A stretch of DNA of 64,000 bases from Nitrospinaceae bacterium (GTDB lineage Bacteria > Nitrospinota > Nitrospinia > Nitrospinales > Nitrospinaceae), in contig OZ250172.1 in NCBI GenBank assembly GCA_965237905.1, positions 832,001 to 896,000 on the forward strand, given 5' to 3'. This document shows positions 15,656 through 58,748 of this stretch, in pieces. The first letter of the stretch is position 1. Each line of letters opens with the position of its first letter. The position numbers and the translations under genes are program-made. The notes under the pieces were generated by a model. It had not been told where the DNA came from, did no database searches, and saw only the letters and a program-made list of their open reading frames with translations.

Positions 15656-15996
15656 GCCAGGCGTTCCAGCGGGGATTGACGCTCGAAGGTGTAGCCGCAG
15701 GTGTCGATATCGCTCGGCGCATCCGGGTACTTGAGGCACAGCAGGGGTTTTTCGGGCGAGTTGTGGACCTTGCATTGATTATCTTCCGTCAATTGACTGC
15801 ACGGGATATCGACCGCGTAAAACAGCGCGTTGCCCGCCACGTCCTCCCCCACCACCCGGATGCCCCGGTAGCCGAGGTAACGCTCCAGTTCCTCCCGATT
15901 GCCATGCTGGCGCAGAGTCACATCCCGCACCACCGTTAGATTCACCGTCCTGCAACACTCGCCGCATTGATGACATTCACCTGTTCGATTGAGCAT
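15652..15996 (-). CDS. YkgJ-family cysteine-cluster protein
   Basis: CHQCGECC...CSQL...CKVH...KPLLCLKYP pattern. Confidence 0.85.
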   Translation of the reverse strand: MLNRTGECHQCGECCRTVNLTVVRDVTLRQHGNREELERYLGYRGIRVVGEDVAGNALFYAVDIPCSQLTEDNQCKVHNSPEKPLLCLKYPDAPSDIDTCGYTFERQSPLERLA

Positions 15997-16235
15997 ACTA
16001 TTGTTCCTGTTAGGGTTTCCCGAGATCATATCCTAGCATAACTTACAGGAGAAACAGCGGGAGACCAGGCGCTAGTAGTGTCTCAGCTTGAAATCGAATG
16101 TCCCCGAACGGCCAAAAGCGGATATTCTGCTCGGGTTGAAATACTTTCCTGCTCATATCCGACTTCCATGTATCAAGTTTTAGGCCCAAATCCTAACACA
16201 ACACCTGGACCGGTTTTTGGGGGGCGGGTCAGTCA

Positions 16236-17186
16236 TCAGATAAATGTACCGCCAGCGGAATGAAACAGAGCGCTCGCCTTGTTGAGTCGGTCCAGCTGAT
16301 CGGAAGTAAGCGTAATTTCCCCGGCAGCACAAAATTCCTTCACCTGATCCACTTTGCGTGACCCTACCACAGCGGTGGTGATATTCTTTTGCTGGATCAC
16401 CCATGCGAGTGCAACGTTGATGGGGGCCGTATTGATTTCTTGTGCAATTTCCTGAACAGTGTGGCGCACGGTTTGCGAATCACCTAAATGAGGCTGCCAA
16501 TACAGGTAATATTCCTTGCGGGAGGGTGCCTTTAGGGCCTCTTCATCGAGTCGACCGGCTAGTAGACCACGGGCACTGGGCGAACACGCCATGTAACCGA
16601 TACCGGCTCTTTCACATTTTTTTAAATGCTCTCCTTCGTACTCGCGCTGAAGCAGGTTATAAGGAACCTGATTGACGGTGAACAACGAGGCGGCGCCTGC
16701 CATCAGGCCAATGTCTATCGCCCGGAAATTCGAGATACCTACGGTACGGGCCTTGCCACTTTCTTTGAGGGCAGCCATGATGTCGCACATCTTCCCGGTC
16801 TTTAGCATGGTGTCTAAATACATGCCCGGCCAGTGGACCAGATACACATCGACATAATCCCGCCCAAGCGCTTTCAACGTACCCTCAAGACGCGACTGGT
16901 AAGCCTCGAGTGTCAATCCGGCATCGGGCCAGATTTTGGAAACGATGAGGACATCGTTTTTGCGGGAGCCCAGGGCTTTGCCGAGGCGGCGCTCGGATTC
17001 CCCGTCGCCAAAACCCTCGGCGGTATCAAACGCCATGATGCCGCCCTCCAGGGCGGTCTTCACCACCCGGTCGGCCTCTTCTACCGAACACACGTCCCCC
17101 CAACCTTCGCTGGGGGCAATCTGCCAGCAGCCAAAGGTGAGGGCCGTCCAGGGGATATCAAGTCCTTCGACTTTTATTGAACGCAT
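16236..17186 (-). CDS. Aldo/keto reductase
   Basis: FGCWQI, FDTAEGFG, SKIW, DVYLVHWP and GISNF motifs; ATG at 17186. Confidence 0.9.
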   Translation of the reverse strand: MRSIKVEGLDIPWTALTFGCWQIAPSEGWGDVCSVEEADRVVKTALEGGIMAFDTAEGFGDGESERRLGKALGSRKNDVLIVSKIWPDAGLTLEAYQSRLEGTLKALGRDYVDVYLVHWPGMYLDTMLKTGKMCDIMAALKESGKARTVGISNFRAIDIGLMAGAASLFTVNQVPYNLLQREYEGEHLKKCERAGIGYMACSPSARGLLAGRLDEEALKAPSRKEYYLYWQPHLGDSQTVRHTVQEIAQEINTAPINVALAWVIQQKNITTAVVGSRKVDQVKEFCAAGEITLTSDQLDRLNKASALFHSAGGTFI

Positions 17187-17341
17187 TATTTCACAATCAG
17201 CGTAAAACGCCGGTAGCTGAGGTAACGTTCCAACTCCTCCCGATTGCCGTGCTGACGCAGAGTCACATCCCGCACCACCGTCATATTTACCGTCCTGCAG
17301 CACTCGCCACACCCGTGGCACTCACCTGTTCTATTTAACAT
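17186..17341 (-). pseudogene. Truncated 5' duplicate of the ykgJ-like gene (51 aa)
   Basis: MLNRTGECHGCGECCRTVNMTVVRDVTLRQHGNREELERYLSYRRFTLIVK* is nearly identical to the first ~44 aa encoded at 15652-15996. Confidence 0.8.
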
Positions 17342-17405
17342 CATATCCTCGAATAGTTTAAAAAATAGATAAATTTAAAAGACCGCCAAGGTTTAATAGA
17401 AACCC

Positions 17406-20400
17406 CTATATAGACCACCAAGCCTCTTGTTCTTCATCTTCATCGCGGGCAGCAGCTTTTTCAAGGCCCAGTTGATGAAGGATTTGTTGCGCCCATATAC
17501 GTACACGTTTAACCGGATGGTTTTCTAATTCTTTGAAAGGAAGTTCATAAAGCTCAAAGTATTTTGTGCGCGAACCAGACCAACCGTATGAGTATATATT
17601 TCTATTTATTCCATTTAATACATTTTCCCTATCACCAAATTCATCTAACAGGCGGCGAGTAACAGGATGAATCGTTCGATCAGGAGCATCGGGATCCCTT
17701 GAAGAGAGAACCGGGGCTACAACAGAAACAAAAGCCGGGGCTTTTTCAGGGTTGGCATGGCACCAGGCAAATAGAGTGTCTTCCGGTAAGTTCAAAATTG
17801 CGGGATTAGGTTGTTTACTGAACGAATGCTTGTCTCCAAGGAGATACTCAAACTTCCATATAAATTTTTTGTTGGAAATTATAGCTTGGCCTATGAGCGG
17901 CCATGAAATTTCAGGAAAGTCGGCTAGCAATTGTGGAATAAGAGGTTTAATCAATTCTTCTCCGCCAGAATCAACTGAATGAATGAGTTGACGTGTTAGA
18001 GATAGGGCTATTTTTCGAGCTGTTGAATTTCCCCGCCCTTTATCCAAAACCCATTTCATTATTTCTTCGAAATGGTGACCATCCATGTGTGACCGACCAC
18101 CATTTTCAGCCTTAGTACTTGCTTTTTCCGCAGCAAGAAAAATTTGAGGTGTAAGGTCCTCCAACACATGTTTTCGTGAAAAAGCATACATCCCCATAAG
18201 ATTTATGCCTACTAAATAAGCGTCCTTTCCCATTTCAAATAAAATTTCAAAAAGTGGAGCAACATGTGGTGCTGGGAGCTCAGCAAGCTTTCCACCGCCA
18301 CTCCATACCATAAGGTGCCAAGGATTTATTAGCCTTGAAATTAGCGCCTTTAAAACTAGAGGAATATCGCTTGGTTTTATATCAATTTGCCAACAAATGG
18401 AAGGAAGGGCAACCGCGAGGTCAGATGACACGGAAGCTTTTTGTTTAAAATCTTCTACAACATCAGGGTTTGTTTTAACAAGGCTTGATAAATAACCTGA
18501 TAAAAATTCAAAATTTCTTTCTTCTTTATTAATGGATGTTAGGGCAGCGATTATAGAATCAAGAAAAGATACAGGATCATCAATTTTTTCTGAAATAGCA
18601 TACCCAAATACCGCTGCCATACGTTGTTGGCCTTTGATCACCTGGGGGAGGCATGTTCTTAAATCTTCAATATTTTTCGAAAGTTCTCCGGCTAGAACTT
18701 CCACATCCTCTTTTTGCCGTTTGTTTTGTTCTTCATAAGAAAGCTTTTTGTCACATGGATAGTCCCACGGCATTTCTGTGACAAGGGAGCGCACACGATC
18801 AATCAATGCTTCCGGTTGTAGCCTGCTGATTAACTCCTGTACTTTCTGAATAATTTCCTTTTCTAATCCCTCTTTATCATAAACTAAAACATGACCCAGA
18901 CTTTCATAAGCCTCTGGCCAATATGTACCATGAATGGAACTAACATCTTTGATAGCTTTCTCGACAATATGCATCAAATTCCGTGTTGCTAGCGACCTGA
19001 ACTTATGGCCCAAGCCTTTTCCTGCTAATCTCCCCACTTCATCTTTTCTTTGGGCAAGTGTGATTAGTCGATTGCAACATTCTTCAATATAATTCCAAAC
19101 TTCGCCCCAAGTTTCAGGTTGCCATGGCTCCAGCGCAGGACGGCTGCCGTGTGTTTCAGAACCTACGGATCGGGAGAAATGATCCATTTGTGCGCCTTGG
19201 AGTAAAGCTTCGACAATAATCAATAGCCGTCCTTCTTCCTCTGTGTTCAATGCATCTCCAATAAACCTTAGGCGTCTTTCACCATCAGCAGCAGTATCAC
19301 CTAAATATACAGGAAAAAGTGATTTGAATTGTCCCGTTGCATTATTAGAATAATTTTCGTTTTCCGCAACGGCAAGGTCCAGCATCAACTTGGCTCCTCG
19401 TTCAAACGTATCAGGATCAAAACATACTTTATCTAAAGCCCAGACGATGTGACGCCTAGTATCATTGTCAATACTGATTAATTTTTCGCAAGAAAGATTT
19501 CCAATAATCCTCTCAAGCAATGTTACAGCTGCTTCAGTATCTATTTCTGCCAAATTGGAAAAAAATTCTGAATGCCCCGGCTTGGCTAGACTTTCAAGAG
19601 AATCAAAGGGACCACCTCTTCTTAATAAATGCCTACCAATCGTACTACCAAGGTCAGTGGTGTTTAGCAGTTTAAGTTGTGACGCGGCTCTCTTTTTAAG
19701 CCCTTCTGGCAAAGATCCTTCAATGATATTATCCCAATCATCCTTCCCCCACTCACCCCAAAGTTTTTCAGCTAAGTTCAAAGCTACAGGACGGGGCTGA
19801 ATCATAAAGCTCTTTCCTTTGGTTTGCACGATCCCACGATCTACCAACCTTCTTATTGCTGAACGCATTGCTTCAGGGCTCAAATTACGACCAAGTTTTG
19901 AGACCGTTCCGATTTCGCTATCATAGATAATTCCAAAAATACTTAAGATCTGGGCACCCCGAAAAAGAATATCCGCTTCCACTTGATCACGTCCTATGAT
20001 AATTGCTTTTGCAATGTCTTCAGGAGCGTAAGCAACTGGAATATTCTGAACCCCAACCTGCCCCAATAAAACCGCGATTTTTGGAAAACCTTGGGAGAAT
20101 CGTACAAGCCGCCTAAAATCCTCATCAGGTTGACCGCTATTGATGGCTTTTAAGATTCCCTCGATTACGGCTTGGTCAGCTAGCCCTACAATAACTCTGC
20201 CTTCACCCTCTAAAAAAGGAGGCTCATTATCAATAGTAACAAGCGACAGAAGACTTTCCTGCCTTTGGACAACATTGGATAGATCTAAATGGGTTTGTGC
20301 ATCACAATGATCGACAACAATGATAACCTCTGTAGGAGAGTCGGCAAGATTCTGAACCGCGAGTTTTACCGCAATGCTCCCGGCCATCTGTTCATCAATA

Positions 20401-21455
20401 TAAAGTGCCCGTTCACTTAACTGGAATGAAGAATCACTGCTGGATTCTTTAGTGTCCAAGGTCTCTAAGACAAGACGTGATTTACCTACTCCTGGAGGGC
20501 CAAGAACACGTGCAACACCTTTTGGGTGGTCAATAATAGGAAGCAATTTTTGGCGCAGATCTATACGGCGAGGATCTTCAACCCAGGGAGTGCTGTGCTC
20601 AGGACTGGTTTTCCAGTAGGACCAAGTTTTAAATTTACCAATAGCGCCATGCTCGGTTTGTTCCAAGAGCCAAACTGCAACAGAAGTATGAGTATTGACC
20701 CACTCAGCAATTTGGCTTGAATCCCAAAAAGCCACTTGCCAATCGTCAATCTTTAGCCCAGCTTCCTTTAGGGAAGCACGAATGGACTTCTCCTTTTTTA
20801 TAATTTCTTCCTTAGTGTAAGAGTGGGCGCAAAGCAGAGTGTAACTTCCTCCAGCCTCTAGCATGGAGAGCACCATGGGTTTTATTTTCCCATCAGGTTT
20901 CAGAATTTCCTTGCCAACTTTTTTATTGTCAACTTTACCTGATTTCAGTTGAAACTGATTTAAGCGATGACGCAAATAACGAGTTTTTTCCGGGCCCCCT
21001 GTCCATACAATTCTCCCATCTTCTCCACCATCAGGCGCTGTTATATTTTCAGCCACGTGAATACCATCTCCTGGAATAGAGTGGGCATAGGCTTCTGCCG
21101 CTAATAGTCGTCTCATGAGCAGAGGAAACTTGTCTGCAGATAGCTCAGCAACATGTTTTCCGCTGACTTCAAAAGGTGACCTCCCTCCTTTTGTTGTAGA
21201 TTCCCTTGTTTTTCCAGTTAGGATTTTAAGTGACGCTGGGTTTGTTTCCAGAATTTTTAAAAGGTTTATTACGGCAGCAGCCGGCTTAATAGCCCCAGAC
21301 TCATATTTTGTGAATGCCCGCGGACCACCGCCAATCAATTCTCCAGCCTCAACTTGGGAAAGGCCAAGGCCTTCCCGAATTGTTTTAATACGTTTCGGAG
21401 ACAAATTTTCCTTTTTATTGTTTTCTAAATCACTTTTTCCGTTTTTCATAACCAT
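17406..21455 (-). CDS. MqsA-type HTH + PD-(D/E)xK-like nuclease + P-loop NTPase + helical-repeat fusion (candidate STAND/Avs-like defence protein)
   Basis: LGLSQVEAGELIGGGPRAFTKYESG HTH; APDGGEDG...FQLKS; Walker A GPPGVGKS; Walker B-like VIIVVD; long helical C-terminus; visibly AT-richer than its flanks. Confidence 0.7.
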   Translation of the reverse strand: MVMKNGKSDLENNKKENLSPKRIKTIREGLGLSQVEAGELIGGGPRAFTKYESGAIKPAAAVINLLKILETNPASLKILTGKTRESTTKGGRSPFEVSGKHVAELSADKFPLLMRRLLAAEAYAHSIPGDGIHVAENITAPDGGEDGRIVWTGGPEKTRYLRHRLNQFQLKSGKVDNKKVGKEILKPDGKIKPMVLSMLEAGGSYTLLCAHSYTKEEIIKKEKSIRASLKEAGLKIDDWQVAFWDSSQIAEWVNTHTSVAVWLLEQTEHGAIGKFKTWSYWKTSPEHSTPWVEDPRRIDLRQKLLPIIDHPKGVARVLGPPGVGKSRLVLETLDTKESSSDSSFQLSERALYIDEQMAGSIAVKLAVQNLADSPTEVIIVVDHCDAQTHLDLSNVVQRQESLLSLVTIDNEPPFLEGEGRVIVGLADQAVIEGILKAINSGQPDEDFRRLVRFSQGFPKIAVLLGQVGVQNIPVAYAPEDIAKAIIIGRDQVEADILFRGAQILSIFGIIYDSEIGTVSKLGRNLSPEAMRSAIRRLVDRGIVQTKGKSFMIQPRPVALNLAEKLWGEWGKDDWDNIIEGSLPEGLKKRAASQLKLLNTTDLGSTIGRHLLRRGGPFDSLESLAKPGHSEFFSNLAEIDTEAAVTLLERIIGNLSCEKLISIDNDTRRHIVWALDKVCFDPDTFERGAKLMLDLAVAENENYSNNATGQFKSLFPVYLGDTAADGERRLRFIGDALNTEEEGRLLIIVEALLQGAQMDHFSRSVGSETHGSRPALEPWQPETWGEVWNYIEECCNRLITLAQRKDEVGRLAGKGLGHKFRSLATRNLMHIVEKAIKDVSSIHGTYWPEAYESLGHVLVYDKEGLEKEIIQKVQELISRLQPEALIDRVRSLVTEMPWDYPCDKKLSYEEQNKRQKEDVEVLAGELSKNIEDLRTCLPQVIKGQQRMAAVFGYAISEKIDDPVSFLDSIIAALTSINKEERNFEFLSGYLSSLVKTNPDVVEDFKQKASVSSDLAVALPSICWQIDIKPSDIPLVLKALISRLINPWHLMVWSGGGKLAELPAPHVAPLFEILFEMGKDAYLVGINLMGMYAFSRKHVLEDLTPQIFLAAEKASTKAENGGRSHMDGHHFEEIMKWVLDKGRGNSTARKIALSLTRQLIHSVDSGGEELIKPLIPQLLADFPEISWPLIGQAIISNKKFIWKFEYLLGDKHSFSKQPNPAILNLPEDTLFAWCHANPEKAPAFVSVVAPVLSSRDPDAPDRTIHPVTRRLLDEFGDRENVLNGINRNIYSYGWSGSRTKYFELYELPFKELENHPVKRVRIWAQQILHQLGLEKAAARDEDEEQEAWWSI

Positions 21456-21494
21456 AGTGACCCTATTTTGAATTTCTTTCTCACGTCAGTATTT

Positions 21495-21692
21495 CTAGTG
21501 TCGCAGTGCTGTTTCCAGAATCATTAACCGGCGTTTTAAGGCAGAGTCCGGCTTGGTGACCCCGGATTCATATTCTTCGAACGCTCGAGGAGCACAGTTA
21601 AATAATTCCTCAGCTTTAACTTGGGAAAGACCAAGGCTTTCCCGAATTATGCGGATTCGTTGTGGTGAAAATTTATCTTTATAAATAACCAT
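21495..21692 (-). CDS. Small XRE/MqsA-type HTH protein, paralogue of the N-terminus of the adjacent 1349-aa protein
   Basis: FSPQRIRIIRESLGLSQVKAEELF...AFEEYESGVTKP aligns with LSPKRIKTIREGLGLSQVEAGELI...AFTKYESGAIKP. Confidence 0.75.
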   Translation of the reverse strand: MVIYKDKFSPQRIRIIRESLGLSQVKAEELFNCAPRAFEEYESGVTKPDSALKRRLMILETALRH

Positions 21693-21832
21693 AGTGGTCC
21701 TTAGTCTAAATCTATACCATTATGGTCACAAGTCGACTGAGATGTCAACGGTGGGATATAATTTTTTTGGTTTGGGGGGTTTAAGCCCTCTCGCAGGCTA
21801 TATTTCCGTTTTCCTGAAGATGCAATCGGACG

Positions 21833-22852
21833 TTACACACAATAGGGCGGGATACCCTCTTCGACGGGTGTGCCGGGTTTGCCGTTCTTGATGTTCTGGA
21901 TGTTTTTGGCGGTGCCGGTGATCATTTTCTGGCGGGAGATTTCGATCTGCCGCATGATCTCGTCGGGTGAATCGGTGAGCAGGTTGCCGAACTTGGGCTG
22001 GCATTTCAAATTGCCGACGTCACAGCACGGGGTCATCTCCCCGGTTTGCTGGACGGTCATGATCTCGATGGTACCGCGCGGGATGGTGCACTCCAGCGTG
22101 TTGACGTCTTTCGGGAACGGTTGCGACACCATGGCCCGCTCTCCCCGCTCGTCGACATAAAACCCCAGGATCATATTGACCCCAAAGGTGAAGCCGCCGA
22201 CGGTGGTGTAGCTCTCGATATCTGCCATCGCGTTGTTGAATTCCGCTTCCGTGCATCCCGGCTTTTCTTTCACCAGTTGTTCGATCCGCTCGCGGTGGGC
22301 CTCCAGCAGGGTGAGGGTGGGATGAAACTTCGCCCCCTGCTCGCCAAAAAATTGCTTCATCGTTTCCAACTGAGTCAGCAGGTCCGGCACCTTTTCGAAA
22401 ATCATGTTCACGATCAATTCGTTCTGCAGTCCCAGGATTTCTTTCAGCAGAGGTTTTTGCCGTGATTCCCACACGGTGGGGTACAGGGTGAAATCGACCC
22501 GCCCGTGCAGTTTCATGATTTCCACCAGCCGCAACCAGCGTGAGTGCGTGTTCGATTGGATGTCGAGGTTGGTGTGCAGGCGGACGTTGGGCGAAATCCT
22601 GCGGAAGATGTTGAAAATTTCGACGAGGTGCGGATTCTGCGAAGGCTCGCCGCCGGTGAAGTTGATTTCCTGTTGGGCCAGCTGGTTGAACAGGTCGATC
22701 TGCTTGATCTTGTCCACCATCACCTGCGCCTGCTCCGGCAGGAGATGCCAGTCGCTCCGGTCGATCTTCGACAACGGCTCGTAGACGTGGCAGTACGTGC
22801 ACTCATCGCGCACGTAGCGGTTGCAATTGGCTTCGACAAATATATTCAGCAT
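21833..22852 (-). CDS. Radical SAM protein with C-terminal SPASM/twitch-like cysteines
   Basis: CNRYVRDECTYC (CX7CX2C), FTGGEP, LHTN and C-terminal GEMTPCC...FGNL. Confidence 0.8.
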   Translation of the reverse strand: MLNIFVEANCNRYVRDECTYCHVYEPLSKIDRSDWHLLPEQAQVMVDKIKQIDLFNQLAQQEINFTGGEPSQNPHLVEIFNIFRRISPNVRLHTNLDIQSNTHSRWLRLVEIMKLHGRVDFTLYPTVWESRQKPLLKEILGLQNELIVNMIFEKVPDLLTQLETMKQFFGEQGAKFHPTLTLLEAHRERIEQLVKEKPGCTEAEFNNAMADIESYTTVGGFTFGVNMILGFYVDERGERAMVSQPFPKDVNTLECTIPRGTIEIMTVQQTGEMTPCCDVGNLKCQPKFGNLLTDSPDEIMRQIEISRQKMITGTAKNIQNIKNGKPGTPVEEGIPPYCV

Positions 22853-49852: not shown

Positions 49853-51391
49853 TCAATTTTGCTTTTCGGGTAGCTCTACAATATATAAAGTACCCTTCCC
49901 TAAAGAGCTCTTTACCACAATTTTTCCGTGGTGGCGCGTCACTACTTTCAAACATATCGCCAACCCCATCCCGGTACCGGGGAATTCCGAGGTCCCATGA
50001 AGACGCTCAAAGGGTTTAAAAATGCGTTTAATATGTTCCTCTTTCATTCCAATGCCATTATCACGGATTAAAATCTTCCAATATCCATTATCGTTGTAAA
50101 TGCTATCAATCTCTATCTTAGGCGGTTCAGTTTTGTTGTGAAATTTTAAGGCATTGCTGATTAAATTTTGAAACAACTGCCGCATTTGGGTTTTGTCCGC
50201 TTCAATTTTTGGAAGATGTTTTATTTCAATTACTCCCTTTGATCGTTCAATACTCACTTCGAGATCAAGAAGCACCTCATTGACGACCTCCTTCAAATCA
50301 GCAGGTCCCATTTCCGGAGGTAAAGAAGAGATTCTCGAATATCGAAGGAGATCTTCGATAAGCTTTTGCATTCTAACGGAAGAGTTTTCTAATCGATGAA
50401 AGTATTCTTTTTCTTTACTATCCAACTTATCTCCCATAGAAGTTCGCAATCGATCACTAAATGAAATAATTTTCCGCACAGGCTCTTGCAGATCGTGAGA
50501 TGCTGTGCGGGTAAAATCTTCTAAATTTTGATTGGCCTCAGCCAAATCCTTGACTAGATTTTGAAGCATTTCTTCGATTTCTCTTCTTTTTGTTATGTCC
50601 TCTATGAATAGTATGAAGTACAGGGGCTCACCGGATGGCGAAGAAACTGGTGAAATCGTAACGTTCACCCAAACCGGAAGACCATCTTTTCGCAGGTATT
50701 GAGTTTCCCGGGGAAAATATTGGACATTTGCCGTTAAAAGTTCATCAATCATCTTTCGGGTATTAGGGACTTCATCCGGATGGCTAATATCAAAAACGGA
50801 TATCTTTAGTAATTCCTCTTGCTCATAACCAACGATTTGGCAAAATTTATTATTGCATGTGAGCCACTCTCCCTTTAAAGACAAGTGAGCAATACCTATT
50901 GCCGCTTGATTAAAAGAAGCTTTAATCTGCTGTTCGATTTCACTTAAGGTCCCTTGCATCACCTGCTTTTCTTTAACCAGGCGAATCTGCTCAAAACCTC
51001 TACGCAGCGTCGCCAACAATTCTCCCGGATTGACCGGCTTCCTGAGGTAGTCATAGGCTCCATTATTAAGGGCTTGGACAGCTGTCTCTACAGACCCAAA
51101 CCCCGTGACCATGACACATAGAATATTGGGCTGTATCTTTTTTAACTTGGGAAGCAACTCAATCCCGTTGTCCTGGCCCAAACGGATATCAATCAATGCC
51201 AAATCCACAGCATTCTTTCCAATAGACTCCAGCGCTTCTTCCTCACTATGGGCCAACAACGGCTTGTAATTCTCGTTCTCAAGAATTAGCTTCAAACTGG
51301 TTGCAAAATCCAGATCATCGTCAATGATCAGAATTTGACAGTCCGAATGGTTAGCGTTTGAAATCTTTGTTTCTTCCAGCATGTCACTCAT
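49853..51391 (-). CDS. Hybrid REC-PAS-histidine kinase
   Basis: REC (IIDDD, LIDIRL, LRKP), PAS/PAC, ASHDLQEP, QNLISNALKF and GTGMGLAI. Confidence 0.92.
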   Translation of the reverse strand: MSDMLEETKISNANHSDCQILIIDDDLDFATSLKLILENENYKPLLAHSEEEALESIGKNAVDLALIDIRLGQDNGIELLPKLKKIQPNILCVMVTGFGSVETAVQALNNGAYDYLRKPVNPGELLATLRRGFEQIRLVKEKQVMQGTLSEIEQQIKASFNQAAIGIAHLSLKGEWLTCNNKFCQIVGYEQEELLKISVFDISHPDEVPNTRKMIDELLTANVQYFPRETQYLRKDGLPVWVNVTISPVSSPSGEPLYFILFIEDITKRREIEEMLQNLVKDLAEANQNLEDFTRTASHDLQEPVRKIISFSDRLRTSMGDKLDSKEKEYFHRLENSSVRMQKLIEDLLRYSRISSLPPEMGPADLKEVVNEVLLDLEVSIERSKGVIEIKHLPKIEADKTQMRQLFQNLISNALKFHNKTEPPKIEIDSIYNDNGYWKILIRDNGIGMKEEHIKRIFKPFERLHGTSEFPGTGMGLAICLKVVTRHHGKIVVKSSLGKGTLYIVELPEKQN

Positions 51392-51467
51392 TTCCTTTTT
51401 CGCAGGCCGCCATAAAGCGACCTTTGTTCCTATCTATCTTGATGGAGGCGGCTTTTTACCGTCAGCC

Positions 51468-51920
51468 TCATATCTCTTTGTTCTGGTCTCCAGCCTGCTT
51501 TTCTCTGGCCCGGCGAATTTTTTCACAACCTCTATTTAATGAAACTATCAGTTCTTCAGGGTTGACAGGTTTCCTGAGGTAGTCATAAGCTCCATATTTA
51601 AGAGCTTGGATGGCAGTCTCCATGGACCCAAACCCCGTGACCATGACACACAGAATACCGGGCTGTATCTTTTTTAACTTAAAAAGCAAATCAATCCCAT
51701 TGTCCTTGCCCAACCGGATATCAATTAATGCCAAATCCACAGCATTATTTTCAATAGACTCCAATGCTTCTTCCTCACTGTGGGCCAACAACGGTTGGTA
51801 ATTCGCATTCTCGAGAATTAGCTTCAAGCTGGCCGCAAAATCCAGATCATCGTCAATGATCAGAATTCGATAATCCGACCGGCTGGCATTTGAAATCTTT
51901 TCTTCCGGCATGTCACTCAT
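51468..51920 (-). CDS. Stand-alone receiver-domain protein (repeat copy 2)
   Basis: REC motifs; near-identical to 51998-52441. Confidence 0.9.
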   Translation of the reverse strand: MSDMPEEKISNASRSDYRILIIDDDLDFAASLKLILENANYQPLLAHSEEEALESIENNAVDLALIDIRLGKDNGIDLLFKLKKIQPGILCVMVTGFGSMETAIQALKYGAYDYLRKPVNPEELIVSLNRGCEKIRRAREKQAGDQNKEI

Positions 51921-51997
51921 TTCCTTTTTTAGTAGACCGCTATAAAGTAACTCTCATTCCTATCTATCTTAATGGGAACAACTTTTTACCGTCAGCC

Positions 51998-52441
51998 TCA
52001 TATCTCTTTGCTCTGGTCTCCAGCTTGCCTTTCTTTAACCAGGCGAATCTTTTCAAAACCTCTGCGTAGCGTCGCCAACAATTCTCCCGGATTGAGCGGT
52101 TTCCTGAGGTAATCATAGGCTCCATTTCTAAGGGCTTGGACGGCTGTCTCCATGGACCCGAACCCCGTGACCATGACACATAGAATATTAGGCTGGATCT
52201 CTTTTAACTTAAGAAGCAAATCAACTCCATTATCCTGGCCCAAACGGATATCAATCAATGCCAAATCCACAACATTCCTCTCAATCGACTCCAACGCTTC
52301 TTCCTCGCTATAGGCCAACAACGGCTTGTAATTCTCGTTCTCAAGAATTAGCTTTAAACTGGCTGCAAAATCCAGATCATCGTCGATGATCAGAATTCGA
52401 TAATCCGACCGGCTGGCATTTGAAATCTTTTCTTCCAACAT
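51998..52441 (-). CDS. Stand-alone receiver-domain protein (repeat copy 1)
   Basis: IIDDD, LIDIRL, VTGFG and YLRKP motifs. Confidence 0.9.
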   Translation of the reverse strand: MLEEKISNASRSDYRILIIDDDLDFAASLKLILENENYKPLLAYSEEEALESIERNVVDLALIDIRLGQDNGVDLLLKLKEIQPNILCVMVTGFGSMETAVQALRNGAYDYLRKPLNPGELLATLRRGFEKIRLVKERQAGDQSKEI

Positions 52442-52445
52442 ATCA

Positions 52446-53933
52446 TCAACTCCCTTTTTTCATGGGCAGCCATAAAGTAACTTTTGTCCTTATGCCGACT
52501 TGACTATCGATGTCAATCCCGCCTAAATGTTGTTCCATGATTCCTTTTACAATTGGCAGACCCAGTCCAACCCCAAAACTTTTTGTGCTGTACAACGGTT
52601 CATAAATTTTCTCTAAACTTGCCTGTGGTATTCCTTCACCGCTATCGGTAATGACCACTTCCACTCTATCTTGATCGACGCGACTTTCTATCGTCAGTCT
52701 CATATCTTTTTGCTCTGACTGCTCTGGTTTTTTACCGGGTTTGACTTTAGTCATAGCCTGAATTCCATTTTGGATAACATTGATAACAGCCCGGCGAAAA
52801 CTTTCATTGTCGATATAAACAACGGCCTGTGACTTTAAGTTTGTTGTGACAGTCATTGCTTCAGGTATGGATTGTTCATCAATCAACTCATTTAGCCACG
52901 GGTCCATCTTAACAGGCTCAAGGCTTTTTTCCTGAAGCCGGGTAAAATCCAAAAGCTCCTCAATAATATGGTCACAGCGAACCACGTTTCTTTCAATCCT
53001 GTCTAACTCGGGTTCCAGAGCGTAGTTGTTTTTACTGACCAATTGCTTGATATTAAAAATAGTATTGCGAATTGTTCCCAAAGGGTTCCGAATTTCGTGA
53101 CTTACCATCGCAGACAGGGTGCCCATAACCGCCAGTTTTTCCTTACTCACAAGTTCCTTTTGAGCCGCCTCCAGCTCTCTGGTTCGCTCATTAACTAATT
53201 CTTCAAGGTTAGAACGGTATTGAGCCAATGTTTGATCTCTACTCTGAATTTGCGTCAGCATTTCGTTAAATCCGGTGTATAGAACCCCCAGCTCATCCTT
53301 CCCCTCATAAGTCGCCCTTAACGAATAGTCCGTGAGCTGGGATACTTTTTGAGCCGTTTGAGCTAAAGATAATATAGGCTCCGAGATAAACCTTTGCAAT
53401 AGAACGGAAAGAGGGATAGAAACTAATAAAATGATGGAGAAAATTCCAACCACCAATATCAATTGGTTTTCAATCTTGGCTTCCATTTCATTTAAATTTG
53501 CTTTGATATAAATCTTTCCCAAGACTTCGTCTTCCAAAACAATATTTTTAATAATTTCAATCCCTCGTTTCGTAATCTCTTGTCCTTCATGGTCGAACGG
53601 TGGCGGTCCGAATTGTGCGTTTTTATTCCTGGAATAGGTCGCAAAAATCTGGCCATCTGTTAAATAAATGACGGCAAAGTCAATCTGCTTTTCATCCTCC
53701 AAAGAGGAAAGAATCCTTCTCCCTGTCCTTGCGTCCTCAAAAAGAATGGCCGCTCGACTCATGGATCCAATGGCCGACGCAAGCACTGAGAGACTTTCCA
53801 CTATATTCGTTTTCAGGGTCTTGATATCGTTATAGACTAATATACTCCCTTGCAAAAGCAACGTAAACGTCACCAACGCAACCAGCAACAGGACCAACTT
53901 CCTTTTAATGGAATAGGCGCTAAAAGGTTTCAC
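52446..53933 (-). CDS. Membrane sensor histidine kinase (periplasmic sensor, HAMP)
   Basis: Two TMs, DELGVLYTGFNEML HAMP, VSHEIRNPL and GVGLGL. Confidence 0.92.
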   Translation of the reverse strand: MKPFSAYSIKRKLVLLLVALVTFTLLLQGSILVYNDIKTLKTNIVESLSVLASAIGSMSRAAILFEDARTGRRILSSLEDEKQIDFAVIYLTDGQIFATYSRNKNAQFGPPPFDHEGQEITKRGIEIIKNIVLEDEVLGKIYIKANLNEMEAKIENQLILVVGIFSIILLVSIPLSVLLQRFISEPILSLAQTAQKVSQLTDYSLRATYEGKDELGVLYTGFNEMLTQIQSRDQTLAQYRSNLEELVNERTRELEAAQKELVSKEKLAVMGTLSAMVSHEIRNPLGTIRNTIFNIKQLVSKNNYALEPELDRIERNVVRCDHIIEELLDFTRLQEKSLEPVKMDPWLNELIDEQSIPEAMTVTTNLKSQAVVYIDNESFRRAVINVIQNGIQAMTKVKPGKKPEQSEQKDMRLTIESRVDQDRVEVVITDSGEGIPQASLEKIYEPLYSTKSFGVGLGLPIVKGIMEQHLGGIDIDSQVGIRTKVTLWLPMKKGS

Positions 53934-54592
53934 TGGCAGGCCCCTCCCCGAACAAGGGTTGCCAGGTCCAACAGCTCGGAGCTCGCCTTGAATCTCTTAG
54001 CATCCAAACATTGCTTGTTGATCTCAAGTTTGACCCTGTTTTCAACCACCAGGAGATTAATGTCTATTCCCCGCTCGGCAAAACCTTCCGTATCCCCAAC
54101 GGTTAGAATTGGAAGAGCTTTTGTTTGCCTGACAATTCGCTCAACATCGAATCTTTCAGAAAAACTGACAAAAAGAATATCGCATCCCTGAAAATCACTT
54201 CGGGATACATCGAGTTCGATTTCCAGAGGATGTTCTTTAGAGCGGTGCTTTTTCTCAAGACGGTGCAGAATAGAGCCAAAGGGGTTGTCTCCTACAACGC
54301 AAATTTTATATTCATTGTTATTTTTGTAAACATCTGATTGGGGCGGCCATTTGACAAACCGGGTGAATTGGTAAATAAAACCCGCCTTGATCGCATAGGC
54401 CCGCGAGCTCGTTTCCTGGGCAATGGCTTGTGAAGAGAGAAGATGGCTTGATATGACAAAGGACAGCGCTAATACAAGAAAATAACCAGGGAGGGATTTG
54501 AATAATTTACGGGGAAGGGGTTTTGACATGAGATTACCATCAATTTCAGTAGACCGGTCCAATAGGTTTGTTCCTGGGTAATTTTCTGTCAA
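53930..54592 (-). CDS. YfiR/DUF4154-family periplasmic protein
   Basis: IKAGFIYQFTRFVKWP, ICVVGDNPF, CDILFVS, ILTVGD and SSELLDLA; start may be 54529. Confidence 0.88.
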   Translation of the reverse strand: MTENYPGTNLLDRSTEIDGNLMSKPLPRKLFKSLPGYFLVLALSFVISSHLLSSQAIAQETSSRAYAIKAGFIYQFTRFVKWPPQSDVYKNNNEYKICVVGDNPFGSILHRLEKKHRSKEHPLEIELDVSRSDFQGCDILFVSFSERFDVERIVRQTKALPILTVGDTEGFAERGIDINLLVVENRVKLEINKQCLDAKRFKASSELLDLATLVRGGACQ

Positions 54593-54672
54593 ATACTCCT
54601 GCTTGTTTCGATTAAAAATCTAATGGAATCAACCGCCATTTCTATGAACCGTGGAAATATAAGTTACTTACC

Positions 54673-57003
54673 CTAAAACTTAAGGGTGGCCTTCAGGTAA
54701 TAACTGCGCTGGGTTTCCGATTCCACTTCAAGCAACTCATTGAGTTCCGGATGAGACGGATCCAGTAAATTCTGGGCGACAAAAGACAGGTCGACATCTT
54801 TCATGGGCTGCCAGCCCAAACGCACATCCAACCGGCCGTATTCTGGAATGGACCGAGACTTGTTTTTACTCACATAATAATAAAAAGTATCCAGCTCTAA
54901 ATTGTAGGGCAGGTTAAGGTAAGAACGGATATTAAAAATATGGCTCGGCTCCCCTTCGGCCTCCAGATCCCCTTCGGTGTTGAAAGCATTCGGATCAATG
55001 ACAGCATTGGGTAAGGTATGAAGTTGAATCTCAGCGAATGTATAACTCCCGGAAAGCCGCCAGTTCGGAAGAATCTCCCATTGTCCGCTCAATTCCACAC
55101 CGTAAACTTCACCCTCCAAAGAATTATCATTAAGAATGGGGATAATGTCGTGAAAGCCTGTTGGAACCGGTGGGCCGGGTTGGAAAAACAAGGGCGTCCC
55201 GTTGTTAAGCTCAATGAGGTTGTCGTAATCGAAATAATAGGCGGTGATATCAAAATTCAATTTTTTACTGGCTTTCAACCGGTAACCCAACTCGTAAGCC
55301 AGCAACACTTCCGCATCCGTCCGGCCATCATTGTTTTCTTGAATTAGTGTTGGATTTCCGGTACCAAAGACACCCGGTGCAGGAATGAGGATTCGATTAA
55401 CCCTGAAATCCTCTTCCGAGAGATTCGGTAATCGAACCGCCCGGGAGAAGGCCGCCCATACCGTGTGATCCGGATGCGGGTTCCAGGCCGTGCGGACACT
55501 GGGTTGGAATTCAAATCCGGTAAAAACATTATACTCAACCTTGGTTCCTAAAATCAGGCTTAATTCATCGGGAATCAATTGAATTTCATCATGCAAAAAC
55601 AGGCTCGCCAGATGACTCTCCTGCCTCGAAATTTGAACAATATTTGATGGCTCCCGGTCGAAGTGTACATACCGGTAATTCAAACCCCAGGAGAAATTAT
55701 GACTCTTTTGAAATGTTTGAAATGCAAGATTGTGCTGAAATTCGATGTCGTACTGGTCAACAACCGTGTCAGTAGGAATTCCTGATTTCCGTTTTAAGCG
55801 ATCGTAATAAAGCTGTAGTTGATAAGAAGAGGAATCATCCAGGGTGCGATTCCACCGAGTCAGGAAATTGGCGCCTTCCTGAATCTGGGTACCTTGGAAT
55901 GGAGTCGACCCGGCCGATAAAGAAACAAACCGGCTGGTGAAGTCCAGATCGGCATTCAACCGGTAATAATCGCCCTGCAGGGTGAGAAGGTCCTGCTTGT
56001 TGATCTGCCAATCGGATCTAAACCCTCCCTGGCCTATTTGCTTGTCATCAAAAGAGTCACTTCCATCAGGGTTTTTACCGTCATCCCGGTTTCTGTATTT
56101 GCCATACACCCGGTAATTGAGTTCATTTTTCAGTTTTCCATCCACCATTTTTCCACCCAGTTTTCCACCATAGCGTAGCGTGCCAAATCCTTCTTCTTCG
56201 GTACCCACTCCTCCCGCAACCAATCCGCCCTGGGTTTCCCCGGCGCTTTTGGTGATAATATTGATCACCCCGGCTACCGCGTTAGAACCCCAGAGCGCCG
56301 CTCCCGGACCGCGGATCACTTCAATCCGATCGATATCTTCCAAAACCGTGTCCTGGCCAATCCAAAAAACACCCGAACTTACCGGGCTGTAAATGGATCG
56401 TCCATCCATCAGAACGAGCAGTTTATCCGAACCCAGCCGCCGGTTGAATCCCCGGATGGAAATGGCGTATCGGTTTTGATTGATTTTAGAAACCAACACC
56501 CCGGGCACCATGCGCAGGGCTTCCATAATGTTGACGGCGCCCGATCTGCGGATATCCTCACCCGTCACCACATAGATTGCGGAAGCCGCCTTGTGAACCA
56601 GTTCCGGCCTTTTATTGACGATGGTGGTAGTGAGATCCACTTGCATACGCCCCAGTCCTTGAAGACTTATTTCTCCTCCAAGAGCTTTTTCTTCGTCAGG
56701 GGATAATTTCTCTTCATCTGAAAAAACCGGGCTGGGACCAATGAAAGCCAGGAAAATAATAAAACCACTCAAACAAATGATTCGGAAATCGGATGGTTTC
56801 AAATTCCAGAAGCTTGCGGAAATATTCTGTCTGGGATTTTCAGAGGGAGGGGATGTTGGCTTTTGTTTTTTTTGTGAGTGGACCCGACAAGGGCCACCTT
56901 GTAAAGCCAGCCTGCGAGCGCTTTTAAAAATTCTACCCAATTCGAGAAAATCTTTAATTCCAGTCATCCGAGCCTGACCTTTTGAATGATTGATTTTCTC
57001 CAT
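54673..57003 (-). CDS. TonB-dependent receptor
   Basis: Plug motifs EALRMVPGV, LVLMDGR and DIDRIEVIRGPGAALWGSNAVAGVINIITK; C-terminal QNLLD...LKF; start uncertain. Confidence 0.93.
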   Translation of the reverse strand: MEKINHSKGQARMTGIKDFLELGRIFKSARRLALQGGPCRVHSQKKQKPTSPPSENPRQNISASFWNLKPSDFRIICLSGFIIFLAFIGPSPVFSDEEKLSPDEEKALGGEISLQGLGRMQVDLTTTIVNKRPELVHKAASAIYVVTGEDIRRSGAVNIMEALRMVPGVLVSKINQNRYAISIRGFNRRLGSDKLLVLMDGRSIYSPVSSGVFWIGQDTVLEDIDRIEVIRGPGAALWGSNAVAGVINIITKSAGETQGGLVAGGVGTEEEGFGTLRYGGKLGGKMVDGKLKNELNYRVYGKYRNRDDGKNPDGSDSFDDKQIGQGGFRSDWQINKQDLLTLQGDYYRLNADLDFTSRFVSLSAGSTPFQGTQIQEGANFLTRWNRTLDDSSSYQLQLYYDRLKRKSGIPTDTVVDQYDIEFQHNLAFQTFQKSHNFSWGLNYRYVHFDREPSNIVQISRQESHLASLFLHDEIQLIPDELSLILGTKVEYNVFTGFEFQPSVRTAWNPHPDHTVWAAFSRAVRLPNLSEEDFRVNRILIPAPGVFGTGNPTLIQENNDGRTDAEVLLAYELGYRLKASKKLNFDITAYYFDYDNLIELNNGTPLFFQPGPPVPTGFHDIIPILNDNSLEGEVYGVELSGQWEILPNWRLSGSYTFAEIQLHTLPNAVIDPNAFNTEGDLEAEGEPSHIFNIRSYLNLPYNLELDTFYYYVSKNKSRSIPEYGRLDVRLGWQPMKDVDLSFVAQNLLDPSHPELNELLEVESETQRSYYLKATLKF

Positions 57004-57344
57004 TTCCCAAGGTATTGAGGAAATTGGAGTTGGTTTGATTGTTTTACATTATCTTTCTGAATAAATTTATTATAAGGATTGAACCTGCCTTTTAAAAGGA
57101 TAAAAAGGGCTAAATCAACAATTTTTCTCAAAACCGATATTATATTTACACCGATGCCTATATCTTATTATAAATAAAGCCTTTATTGGATATCGGAAAA
57201 ATAGAGTTACAATTACACTTTTTTGTAGACAAAGATTTCTATTTTTGATACAAAGGTGGAAATTCGACTTACCGTAATTGTGGTGCTTTTCCCAGATAGG
57301 CTCTTTTTACCAAGTATTTTAACTTTAAAATAGAGGGGGAAATT

Positions 57345-57530
57345 ATGGTCCATAAAAACTTTCAAGAAGCCATTGAGCAACTTTCTACAAATGAAGATGT
57401 GAATTCCGAAGAAATCAAAAACCAATTCGGTTTGAATGAGGAAGATATGCGGGCCATGAATTCCGATACCCTCATTCAGGGTGCAACTCAACCAGCACCT
57501 GTGTGGTGTTTGTTCCTGTTGTTAAAGTGA
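57345..57530 (+). CDS. RiPP precursor peptide (acidic helical leader); Cys-rich core lies in the +1 frame
   Basis: GAGGGGG RBS; 61-aa ORF directly upstream of the YcaO genes; +1 frame 57502-57525 reads CGVCSCC*. Confidence 0.75.
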   Translation: MVHKNFQEAIEQLSTNEDVNSEEIKNQFGLNEEDMRAMNSDTLIQGATQPAPVWCLFLLLK

Positions 57531-57551
57531 CACTAACGAAAAGTTTTAATG

Positions 57552-57589
57552 AAAAAGGCATTACTCAAATTTGAGTAATGCCTTTTTTT
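57552..57589 (+). terminator. Strong hairpin/terminator between the precursor and the modification genes
   Basis: aaaaaggcattactcaa-at-ttgagtaatgccttttt perfect inverted repeat with T-run. Confidence 0.85.
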
Positions 57590-57668
57590 ATTTCTAAAAA
57601 ATAATCGAAAATCGATGTTTGATATTCGATAATCATTTTCCAAAGGCAATTGGAAGGAATCAGGGATC

Positions 57669-58748
57669 ATGACTAATCCAGGGATCATGGCTGAAGATAC
57701 CTCGGTAACGGTAGATTACGTCACCGTTCCACTACCCAGAAAACCTCGATTGGCTCCCTGGGTTACTTTAGTGGATCTGGGTGACAATCGCATGCAATTG
57801 CGTGGGGCGGAGTTTTCTTTTACCTTACAGCATCCCTTGTTCATTGAAACCTTCCAATCCGTCCACCCCTTGCTGGACGGTCAGCGCACCGTCGAGGAAA
57901 TCGTCGCTTCCCGCGACCCCAAATATCTGCCCACCACGATTACTTTTTTGCTCAAAATGTTGCGCGCCAACGGTGTTTTGCAGGAAGGAGTGGTTTCCCC
58001 TCCGCCGCCACTGGCTCCGGAAAATCTTAAAGAAAATGAAAACATGGTCCAGTTCTTTTCTCATTTTGTGCTGGATCCGGTGGGCACACTGGCTCTTCTG
58101 CATCAAGCGCGGGTGGCCTTGATCGGTTCCGATTCGATAACAAGCCGGGTTCGCAAGGGTCTCCTGAGCATGGGTTTTGGCTCCCTGGTAGCAATTGAGG
58201 GCCTCAGCAAAAAGACTGCGTATGATCCGTCCCAACTGCATAAGGAAGTCACCGGCCAACTGAAAGAAGTGGATTTCCTCATCGCCTGCCAGGATACAGC
58301 GGATTACCGGTTCTTTCAGACCCTGAACACGGTTTGCCTCGAAACCCAAACCCGCTGGATGCATGTCGCTATTTCCGGAACCAAAGGCCTCATGGGACCC
58401 ACGATCGTACCCCATCAGTCGGCCTGTTATGTCTGTTACGACAAACGAATGGCTTCCAATGCATCGGAACTTCAAGGTTATCTGGCCTACCAAAAACAAA
58501 CTGAACCCTCTAAAAGCGAAGGGTTCTTAAGCCCCTTATGGTCGACCCTGGCGGAGCAGGTCACTTTGGAAGTGGCGCGGATTATTTCGGGATTTGCGCC
58601 GCCCAAAACGATCGGGCGGCTCTATGAGTTTGAGGCGACGACTCCTGTGGTAGAAGGACACGATGTCCTGCGACTACCGCGTTGCCCCGCCTGCAATTTA
58701 AAAGAACCGAAGCGCGAGGCGTGGGATCTGCTCTCATTAAACCAATGA
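57669..58748 (+). CDS. TOMM leader-peptide-binding protein (RRE + ThiF/E1-like YcaO partner)
   Basis: LLDGQRTVEEI...LRANGVL RRE-like segment; MGPTIVPHQSACYVC and HDVLRLPRCPAC motifs. Confidence 0.85.
   Translation: MTNPGIMAEDTSVTVDYVTVPLPRKPRLAPWVTLVDLGDNRMQLRGAEFSFTLQHPLFIETFQSVHPLLDGQRTVEEIVASRDPKYLPTTITFLLKMLRANGVLQEGVVSPPPPLAPENLKENENMVQFFSHFVLDPVGTLALLHQARVALIGSDSITSRVRKGLLSMGFGSLVAIEGLSKKTAYDPSQLHKEVTGQLKEVDFLIACQDTADYRFFQTLNTVCLETQTRWMHVAISGTKGLMGPTIVPHQSACYVCYDKRMASNASELQGYLAYQKQTEPSKSEGFLSPLWSTLAEQVTLEVARIISGFAPPKTIGRLYEFEATTPVVEGHDVLRLPRCPACNLKEPKREAWDLLSLNQ

Follow-up and report, generated by a model that had tools for sequence, protein, structure and literature searches.

Introduction

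The Escherichia coli antiphage receptor Avs8A protects against phage lambda and several BASEL phages, and its companion Avs8B is dispensable for this; the system was first called PD-lambda-4 and has since been renamed Avs8 (bioRxiv 10.1101/2025.07.02.662641). Avs8A binds major capsid proteins of the HK97 fold, among them lambda gpE and the Bas21 capsid; the capsid proteins it binds can share less than 15% identity with one another, and its DNase activity requires magnesium and ATP (bioRxiv 10.1101/2025.07.02.662641). Lee et al. reported the same capsid trigger for Avs8 (bioRxiv 10.64898/2026.01.04.697583; Nature version PMC13581612), and Avs7 likewise senses a capsid protein (bioRxiv 10.64898/2026.01.04.697583). 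The antitoxin MqsA represses through an ACCT-N3-AGGT palindrome over its own promoter (PMC5422877; PMC4894380), reading the DNA with residues N97 and R101 (PMC5422877). Here we describe a gene in which relatives of both proteins are joined. It lies in a 64,000-nucleotide stretch of a Nitrospinaceae bacterium genome (contig OZ250172.1, positions 832,001 to 896,000; hereafter the window), and it encodes a 1349-residue protein in which an MqsA-type helix-turn-helix (HTH) domain precedes an Avs8A-like receptor.

We propose, with a probability of about 0.6, that this is a one-gene variant of Avs8 in which the fused HTH domain likely binds two upstream palindromes to repress the gene that encodes it; for the remaining domains, capsid sensing and DNA cleavage are predicted. 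Several toxic defence genes are controlled by separate small repressors that act through operators, such as CapH/CapP, BrxR/CapW and the C proteins of restriction-modification systems. Unlike those, the regulator here is part of the receptor-effector chain itself. With a defined domain, operator and predicted promoter, the proteins described here would allow a direct test of how lethal STAND nucleases are kept at a safe level, notably just after horizontal transfer; in them, an immune receptor would have acquired the repressor component of a toxin-antitoxin pair together with its operator. We found no description of a fusion of an MqsA HTH to Avs8 in the literature on Avs8/PD-lambda-4, MqsA, STAND proteins and fused repressors. 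The terms 'MqsA' and 'HTH' are absent from the two Avs8 main texts, and 'MqsA' also from seven supplements; other large supplements may list the fusion.

An Avs8A core headed by an MqsA-type HTH domain

Residues 95-1344 aligned with positions 4-1279 of the 1283 in the PADLOC model PD-Lambda-4_A (E 1e-70), and no other PADLOC STAND model, including those for AVAST, matched at E 0.1. Identity to E. coli Avs8A (WP_000963924.1) was 21% over 1045 columns (E 2e-28), and 16-17% in the sensor. In hhalign comparisons with a profile of four Avs8A sequences of the E. coli group, all five segments were collinear (Table 1), and crossed controls scored 0.2-0.3%. Judged on sequence, residues 95-1349 are therefore an end-to-end homologue of Avs8A/PD-lambda-4A, with Mrr nuclease, STAND nucleoside triphosphatase (NTPase) and helical sensor in the same order. 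This core is already known; what is new is the fused HTH domain and its DNA sites, and nothing beyond these.

The catalytic motifs are intact. A reading made earlier from the letters of the window (the sequence-only reading) had picked out a DGGEDG...FQLK segment resembling Mrr-type nucleases, Walker A and Walker B-like motifs and a long helical C-terminus, and all of these were found: DGGED (D142, D146), FQLK (Q169, K171), GPPGVGKS (G319-S326) and VIIVVD (D382). The Walker motifs align with those of E. coli Avs8A, and D142, D146, Q169 and K171 with its D51, D55, Q78 and K80, the last two being the residues mutated in the published EcAvs8 catalytic mutant (PMC13581612). D142, D146, Q169 and K325 are present in 119/119 aligned homologues, K171 in 118 and D382 in 117 (P0008 was omitted from this alignment as partial).

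Structure models of residues 1-622 and 421-1349 had mean predicted local distance difference test (pLDDT) scores of 89.3 and 90.7, respectively. The nuclease domain was modelled with a pLDDT of about 90-97. The STAND winged helix, whose absence would have spoken against the sequence-only reading, is predicted as three helices followed by a beta hairpin (pLDDT >89), and residues 570-1349 are mostly helical. Foldseek placed SAMD9, Avs4, Avs3 and plant nucleotide-binding leucine-rich-repeat receptors (NLRs) among the best matches of the N-terminal half, interspersed with Cdc6/Orc1; for the C-terminal half it returned HEAT-repeat-like matches with low TM-scores, as for an alpha-solenoid. A restriction-endonuclease fold was not listed in three structure searches of the 622-residue model, the lists being filled by NTPase and HTH matches.

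The effector-STAND-solenoid plan is shared with the nuclease-STAND-TPR receptors Avs3, Avs4 and Avs7. Unlike the present protein, those receptors have different sensors and belong to PADLOC AVAST models that it did not match, and the accessible parts of the sources mention no fused repressor for them. The STAND-type defence reading proposed from the letters is supported. Its further suggestion, a built-in DNA-binding or autoregulatory domain in an unrecognised type of Avs protein, fared unevenly: the type is recognised, since the core is that of Avs8A, while the guess at autoregulation gained from the palindromes described below. A tblastn search with Avs8B (WP_000443183.1) found none in the genome or in the fetched loci other than its own (L031); as Avs8B is dispensable in E. 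coli, we did not take it as defining Avs8.

The N-terminal domain had been likened to the HTH of MqsA, and this was borne out by both sequence and structure model. Residues 16-76 matched the Pfam family MqsA_antitoxin (PF15731) above its cut-off (E 7e-13), and the model superposed on the C-terminal domain of E. coli MqsA (3fmy_A) with Z 11.3 and a root-mean-square deviation of 1.4 A over 66 residues. In the alignment R46 and K50 occupy the positions of the DNA-reading N97 and R101. The HTH was the best conserved segment of the protein (0.80 vs 0.71 for the nuclease, in a homologue set ranked by an HTH-containing query), and a short, flexible linker (residues 85-90 in the model) joins it to the nuclease. 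Homologues are filed in databases as 'MqsA antitoxin' (for example RefSeq WP_315806360.1) or 'YiaG regulator'.

Table 1. Features of the HTH-Avs8A locus, in window coordinates
Feature	Position	Strand	Basis or remark
HTH-Avs8A gene	17406..21455	minus	single intact open reading frame, 1349 aa
MqsA-type HTH domain	aa 15-80, 21216..21413	minus	Pfam PF15731, structure match to MqsA
Mrr-family PD-(D/E)xK nuclease domain	aa 95-270, 20646..21173	minus	hhalign 99.4%
STAND NTPase domain	aa 290-470, 20046..20588	minus	hhalign 99.5%
Predicted winged-helix domain	~aa 490-570, 19746..19988	minus	model and hhalign 98.9% (aa 470-700)
Alpha-solenoid sensor	~aa 571-1349, 17409..19745	minus	model; hhalign halves 99.0%, 98.2%
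Decayed HTH duplicate, 65 aa	21495..21692	minus	Pfam PF15731 E 5e-8
Operator-like palindrome 1 (ACCA-N3-TGGT)	21716..21726		covers predicted -10 hexamer
Operator-like palindrome 2	21688..21698		28 nt downstream; over start codon of small HTH reading frame
Degenerate palindrome 2 copy (repeat D4)	21451..21461		two mismatches; over main-gene start codon
Predicted sigma-70 promoter TTGACA-18-CATAAT	21719..21748	minus	11/12 consensus matches

HTH-bearing receptors form one clade

With the HTH in the query, PF15731 was found in all of the best 120 of 747 homologues, and the helix motif in 118 of the 119 aligned. Because that set had been gathered with the HTH in the query, the search was repeated with an HTH-free query; 150 representatives were retrieved, 108 were kept (at least 1200 residues and a nuclease motif) and 42 dropped. 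The HTH was carried by 44 of these 108. A FastTree phylogeny was built from 118 cores without the HTH, leaving out P0003. Its 47 HTH-bearing rows all fell inside one clade of 50 with support 1.0, and the three other members had short or cut N-termini. Sixteen named genome loci cover six phyla (Pseudomonadota, Chloroflexota, Gemmatimonadota, Nitrospinota, Cyanobacteriota and Acidobacteriota), whereas Avs8A is found mainly in Gammaproteobacteria. Capsid-sensing, Avs8-like immunity would on our reading extend to at least six phyla.

The gene has no recurrent partner: among 82 nearest-neighbour open reading frames (ORFs) there were only five pairwise matches. Of the 26 loci scanned, 18 had PADLOC matches (E 1e-15) near the gene, and in 11 these were strong, a raw count without a background rate (118 of 136 ORFs were submitted). 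The strong neighbours were restriction-modification, DISARM, AbiE, retron, ThsB, HEC-09 and PD-lambda-3B. A search of 50,697 phage records found no match to the gene, and a scan of viral contigs gave 14 loci, all with the HTH only.

Three side observations concern other members of the family. An Avs8-like protein outside the MqsA-HTH clade (P0175) carries a different, Xre-type HTH at its N-terminus, which suggests an independent repressor fusion. At one locus a second large nuclease-NTPase protein (1545 residues, L005:10176-14813) lies directly downstream of HTH-Avs8 and is followed by PD-lambda-3B. At three loci (L018, L020 and L009) tblastn found HTH-Avs8 in several frame pieces, which are pseudogenes or sequencing errors.

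A palindrome pair conserved together with the HTH

We analysed the DNA upstream of the HTH-bearing genes. Of 67 loci with both HTH and core, 66 offered sufficient upstream sequence, and discarding near-copies left 51. Every gapped palindrome in the 210 nt upstream was counted without bias, with 20 shuffles as control. ACCA-N3-TGGT ranked first, occurring exactly in 38 of the 51 loci against a shuffle maximum of 4, and with at most one mismatch in 49. The exact palindrome was found in 1/45 and 0/48 control windows. Upstream of ten HTH-less relatives it was exact in none and present once at one mismatch, and it is absent upstream of E. coli Avs8A.

The palindrome is usually paired. A second copy lay 27-31 nt from the first in 39 of the 49 loci (shuffled flanks: mean 1.9, maximum 6), and it contained an in-frame ATG in 14 of the 39. 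TTG-type -35 boxes peaked 20-24 nt before the first site, again a raw count without a background rate. Spacer and flank identities were 0.31 and 0.27, near random, so the conservation of the palindrome is not general promoter homology. The pair is operator-like and conserved together with the HTH.

At the window locus, the sequence-only reading had overlooked both the palindrome pair and a small HTH reading frame beside it (Table 1). The genome holds 71 palindrome sites, and the window pair is the sole pair of exact sites 27-31 nt apart. The predicted promoter was the best of seven promoter-like sites in window positions 17200-22000; shuffles yielded 8.2 sites at a looser threshold, so the number of such sites is by itself no evidence.

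The small reading frame lies between the predicted promoter and the main gene, with no terminator-like site between it and the latter, and is 72% identical in DNA to the HTH over 171 nt. Its recognition helix is altered to acidic residues (T49E and K50E equivalents), its frame is shifted near the end, and on the HTH tree it sits on a long branch next to P0001/P0002. No other fetched locus held a second HTH copy. The simplest explanation is a tandem duplication that has since decayed; an anti-repressor role is conceivable.

Likely origin from an mqsRA-type locus

Like MqsA of E. coli and P. putida, the protein has the HTH fold, the recognition-helix pattern and an ACC(A/T)-N3-(T/A)GGT palindrome over its own promoter, here a predicted one. 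Unlike MqsA it has no toxin-binding domain and no MqsR, and its HTH heads a 1349-residue receptor. Only 14 residues precede the HTH, and the MqsA N-terminal toxin-binding (zinc) domain was not found; three MqsA N-domain queries matched nothing in the genome or any fused locus. The lack of an adjacent MqsR-type toxin, already remarked on from the letters, extends to the whole genome and to every fused locus, where tblastn with five MqsR-like queries, three of them confirmed as PF15723, found none.

The palindromes differ as well. The half-site here is ACCA and that of MqsA is ACCT, and the paired sites are 28-30 nt apart, as against 16 nt in two comparison loci (L100, L102). We investigated whether the half-site went with the residue at the R101 position in stand-alone MqsA-type antitoxins, using rows with at least 600 nt upstream and omitting three short-flank rows and those without an N-domain. 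Antitoxins with lysine at this position, as in the fused HTH, had ACCA-N3-TGGT upstream in 9 of 13 rows; of the others, one had ACCT, one was mixed and two had neither. Among those with arginine, ACCA-N3-TGGT occurred in 0/12 and ACCT in 4. The genes upstream of four antitoxins were confirmed as MqsR; that of a fifth, L137, was not confirmed. As the lysine-type antitoxins often carry the same palindrome, the HTH and the operator likely came jointly from such an mqsRA-type toxin-antitoxin locus, which would have contributed neither its toxin nor the toxin-binding domain.

Proposed mechanism and alternatives

By analogy with E. coli Avs8A, the solenoid would bind an HK97-fold capsid monomer, the STAND core would oligomerise with ATP, and the Mrr domains would end the infection by destroying the DNA of both phage and host. 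By analogy with MqsA, the HTH domains would form a dimer at each palindrome and obstruct both the -10 box and the translation start region, so that the lethal nuclease would be kept at a fixed low level. A newly acquired copy would express freely until repressor had accumulated.

A more tentative extension, which we consider doubtful, is that the receptor is its own phage-inducible switch. At rest, two HTH-Avs8 dimers would occupy operators spaced 29 nt apart; once capsid is bound and the tetramer forms, the HTH domains would re-pair and repression would be lifted, much as MqsR lifts that by MqsA. If true, one polypeptide would combine the roles of sensor and nuclease with transcriptional amplification of an NLR-like immune response.

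Several points weigh against the self-repressing Avs8 interpretation or its mqsRA ancestry. A long branch separates E. coli Avs8A from the HTH clade; with the low overall and sensor identities, this means that the ligand may differ. In the window no defence genes neighbour the gene, and the operator pair precedes the decayed duplicate, so that 237 nt separate it from the start of the main gene. Two of the 51 loci (L014 and L045) have no palindrome, and the loci are mutually related, so the palindrome counts overstate their independence. The nine supporting antitoxin rows represent about four lineages, and one antitoxin (L090) has the same recognition helix and yet ACCT-N3-AGGT. The HTH tree is mostly open (30 of 50 inner branches) and supports no claim of a single donor or a single origin. 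In that tree the HTH of P0226/P0250 groups with the stand-alone antitoxins L156/L157, which makes a later HTH swap within the clade possible on sequence grounds.

The low sensor identity and the distance of the clade on the tree also fit a self-repressing STAND nuclease of the same kind whose sensor has diverged to recognise a different phage protein in place of the major capsid protein. The host adds to this, for it keeps an HK97-type capsid gene of its own (G000:C1:1731828-1733018), whose protein has counterparts of 58-91% identity in 13 of 30 relatives. In such a host a receptor that senses capsid risks self-activation, and the host gene would have to be tolerated. We nevertheless consider a drifted sensor unlikely. 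Both sensor halves are collinear with Avs8A, no alternative PADLOC STAND model was found, and Avs8A already binds capsid proteins less than 15% identical (bioRxiv 10.1101/2025.07.02.662641). It is less probable still that the HTH mainly tethers or pre-assembles the nuclease on DNA, with the host chromosome or the locus cut first and repression a side effect. The short, flexible linker would suit such a role, and the fixed 28-30 nt spacing of the two sites suggests one large complex spanning both; however, the predicted -10 box and often (14/39) the start codon are covered by the sites, as with repressor operators, and the HTH-less Avs8A defends without such a domain (bioRxiv 10.1101/2025.07.02.662641).

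Two readings that remove the gene from self-controlled defence are far weaker. The fusion of a DNA-binding domain to a STAND core recalls transcription regulators in the manner of MalT, GutR and AfsR, and Lee et al. noted functional switches between defence and regulatory STANDs (bioRxiv 10.64898/2026.01.04.697583). A non-defence regulator with a vestigial nuclease is very improbable, however, as all 119 homologues, or almost all, keep the nuclease residues, the gene is patchy, AT-rich and often adjoins defence genes, and the single exact operator pair in the genome makes no regulon evident. Least credible is an antitoxin that neutralises MqsR, as the RefSeq name of WP_315806360.1 would have it. 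The model TIGR03830 scored marginally above its cut-off, but only the HTH half of MqsA was matched (profile positions 55-126 of 127), and the N-domain and toxin searches were negative. On its sequence the protein reads as an Avs8 variant and is not an MqsRA module.

Genomic setting

The gene was described from the letters as AT-rich relative to its flanks, and its guanine-plus-cytosine (GC) content is indeed 0.423, below the 0.538 and 0.551 of the flanking DNA and the genome-wide value of 0.505; equally low GC was found in only 8 of 762 genome tiles. On either side are genes for a radical SAM protein and an aldo-keto reductase. In a genome of the same genus (G001) the two flanks are retained and enclose about 7.5 kb of unrelated genes; one of these encodes a NERD nuclease-UvrD helicase (L127:11506-13344), possibly a defence gene. 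A full-length homologue was present in 1 of 60 relatives (G012, 57% identity, at a different site) and in none of the 10 congeneric ones; several of these genomes are incomplete. Contigs of sequencing run X1 were identical to window positions 16800-21932, and this run may be the source sample itself.

The host HK97-type capsid gene cluster lies outside the window (G000:C1:1725431-1740328, L133), beside a dnaA-like ORF that we take from its sequence to be dnaA. In G012 the HTH-Avs8 gene is about 18 kb from its counterpart of this capsid gene. Across the aldo-keto reductase gene, window positions 15865-16001 and 17210-17346 form a direct repeat of 137 nt (84% identical), one copy being a remnant of the start of the CxxCxxCC gene on the far side. 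Positions 50001-58000 are AT-rich (GC 0.39-0.49) with a strong negative GC skew, and may be a second acquired island.

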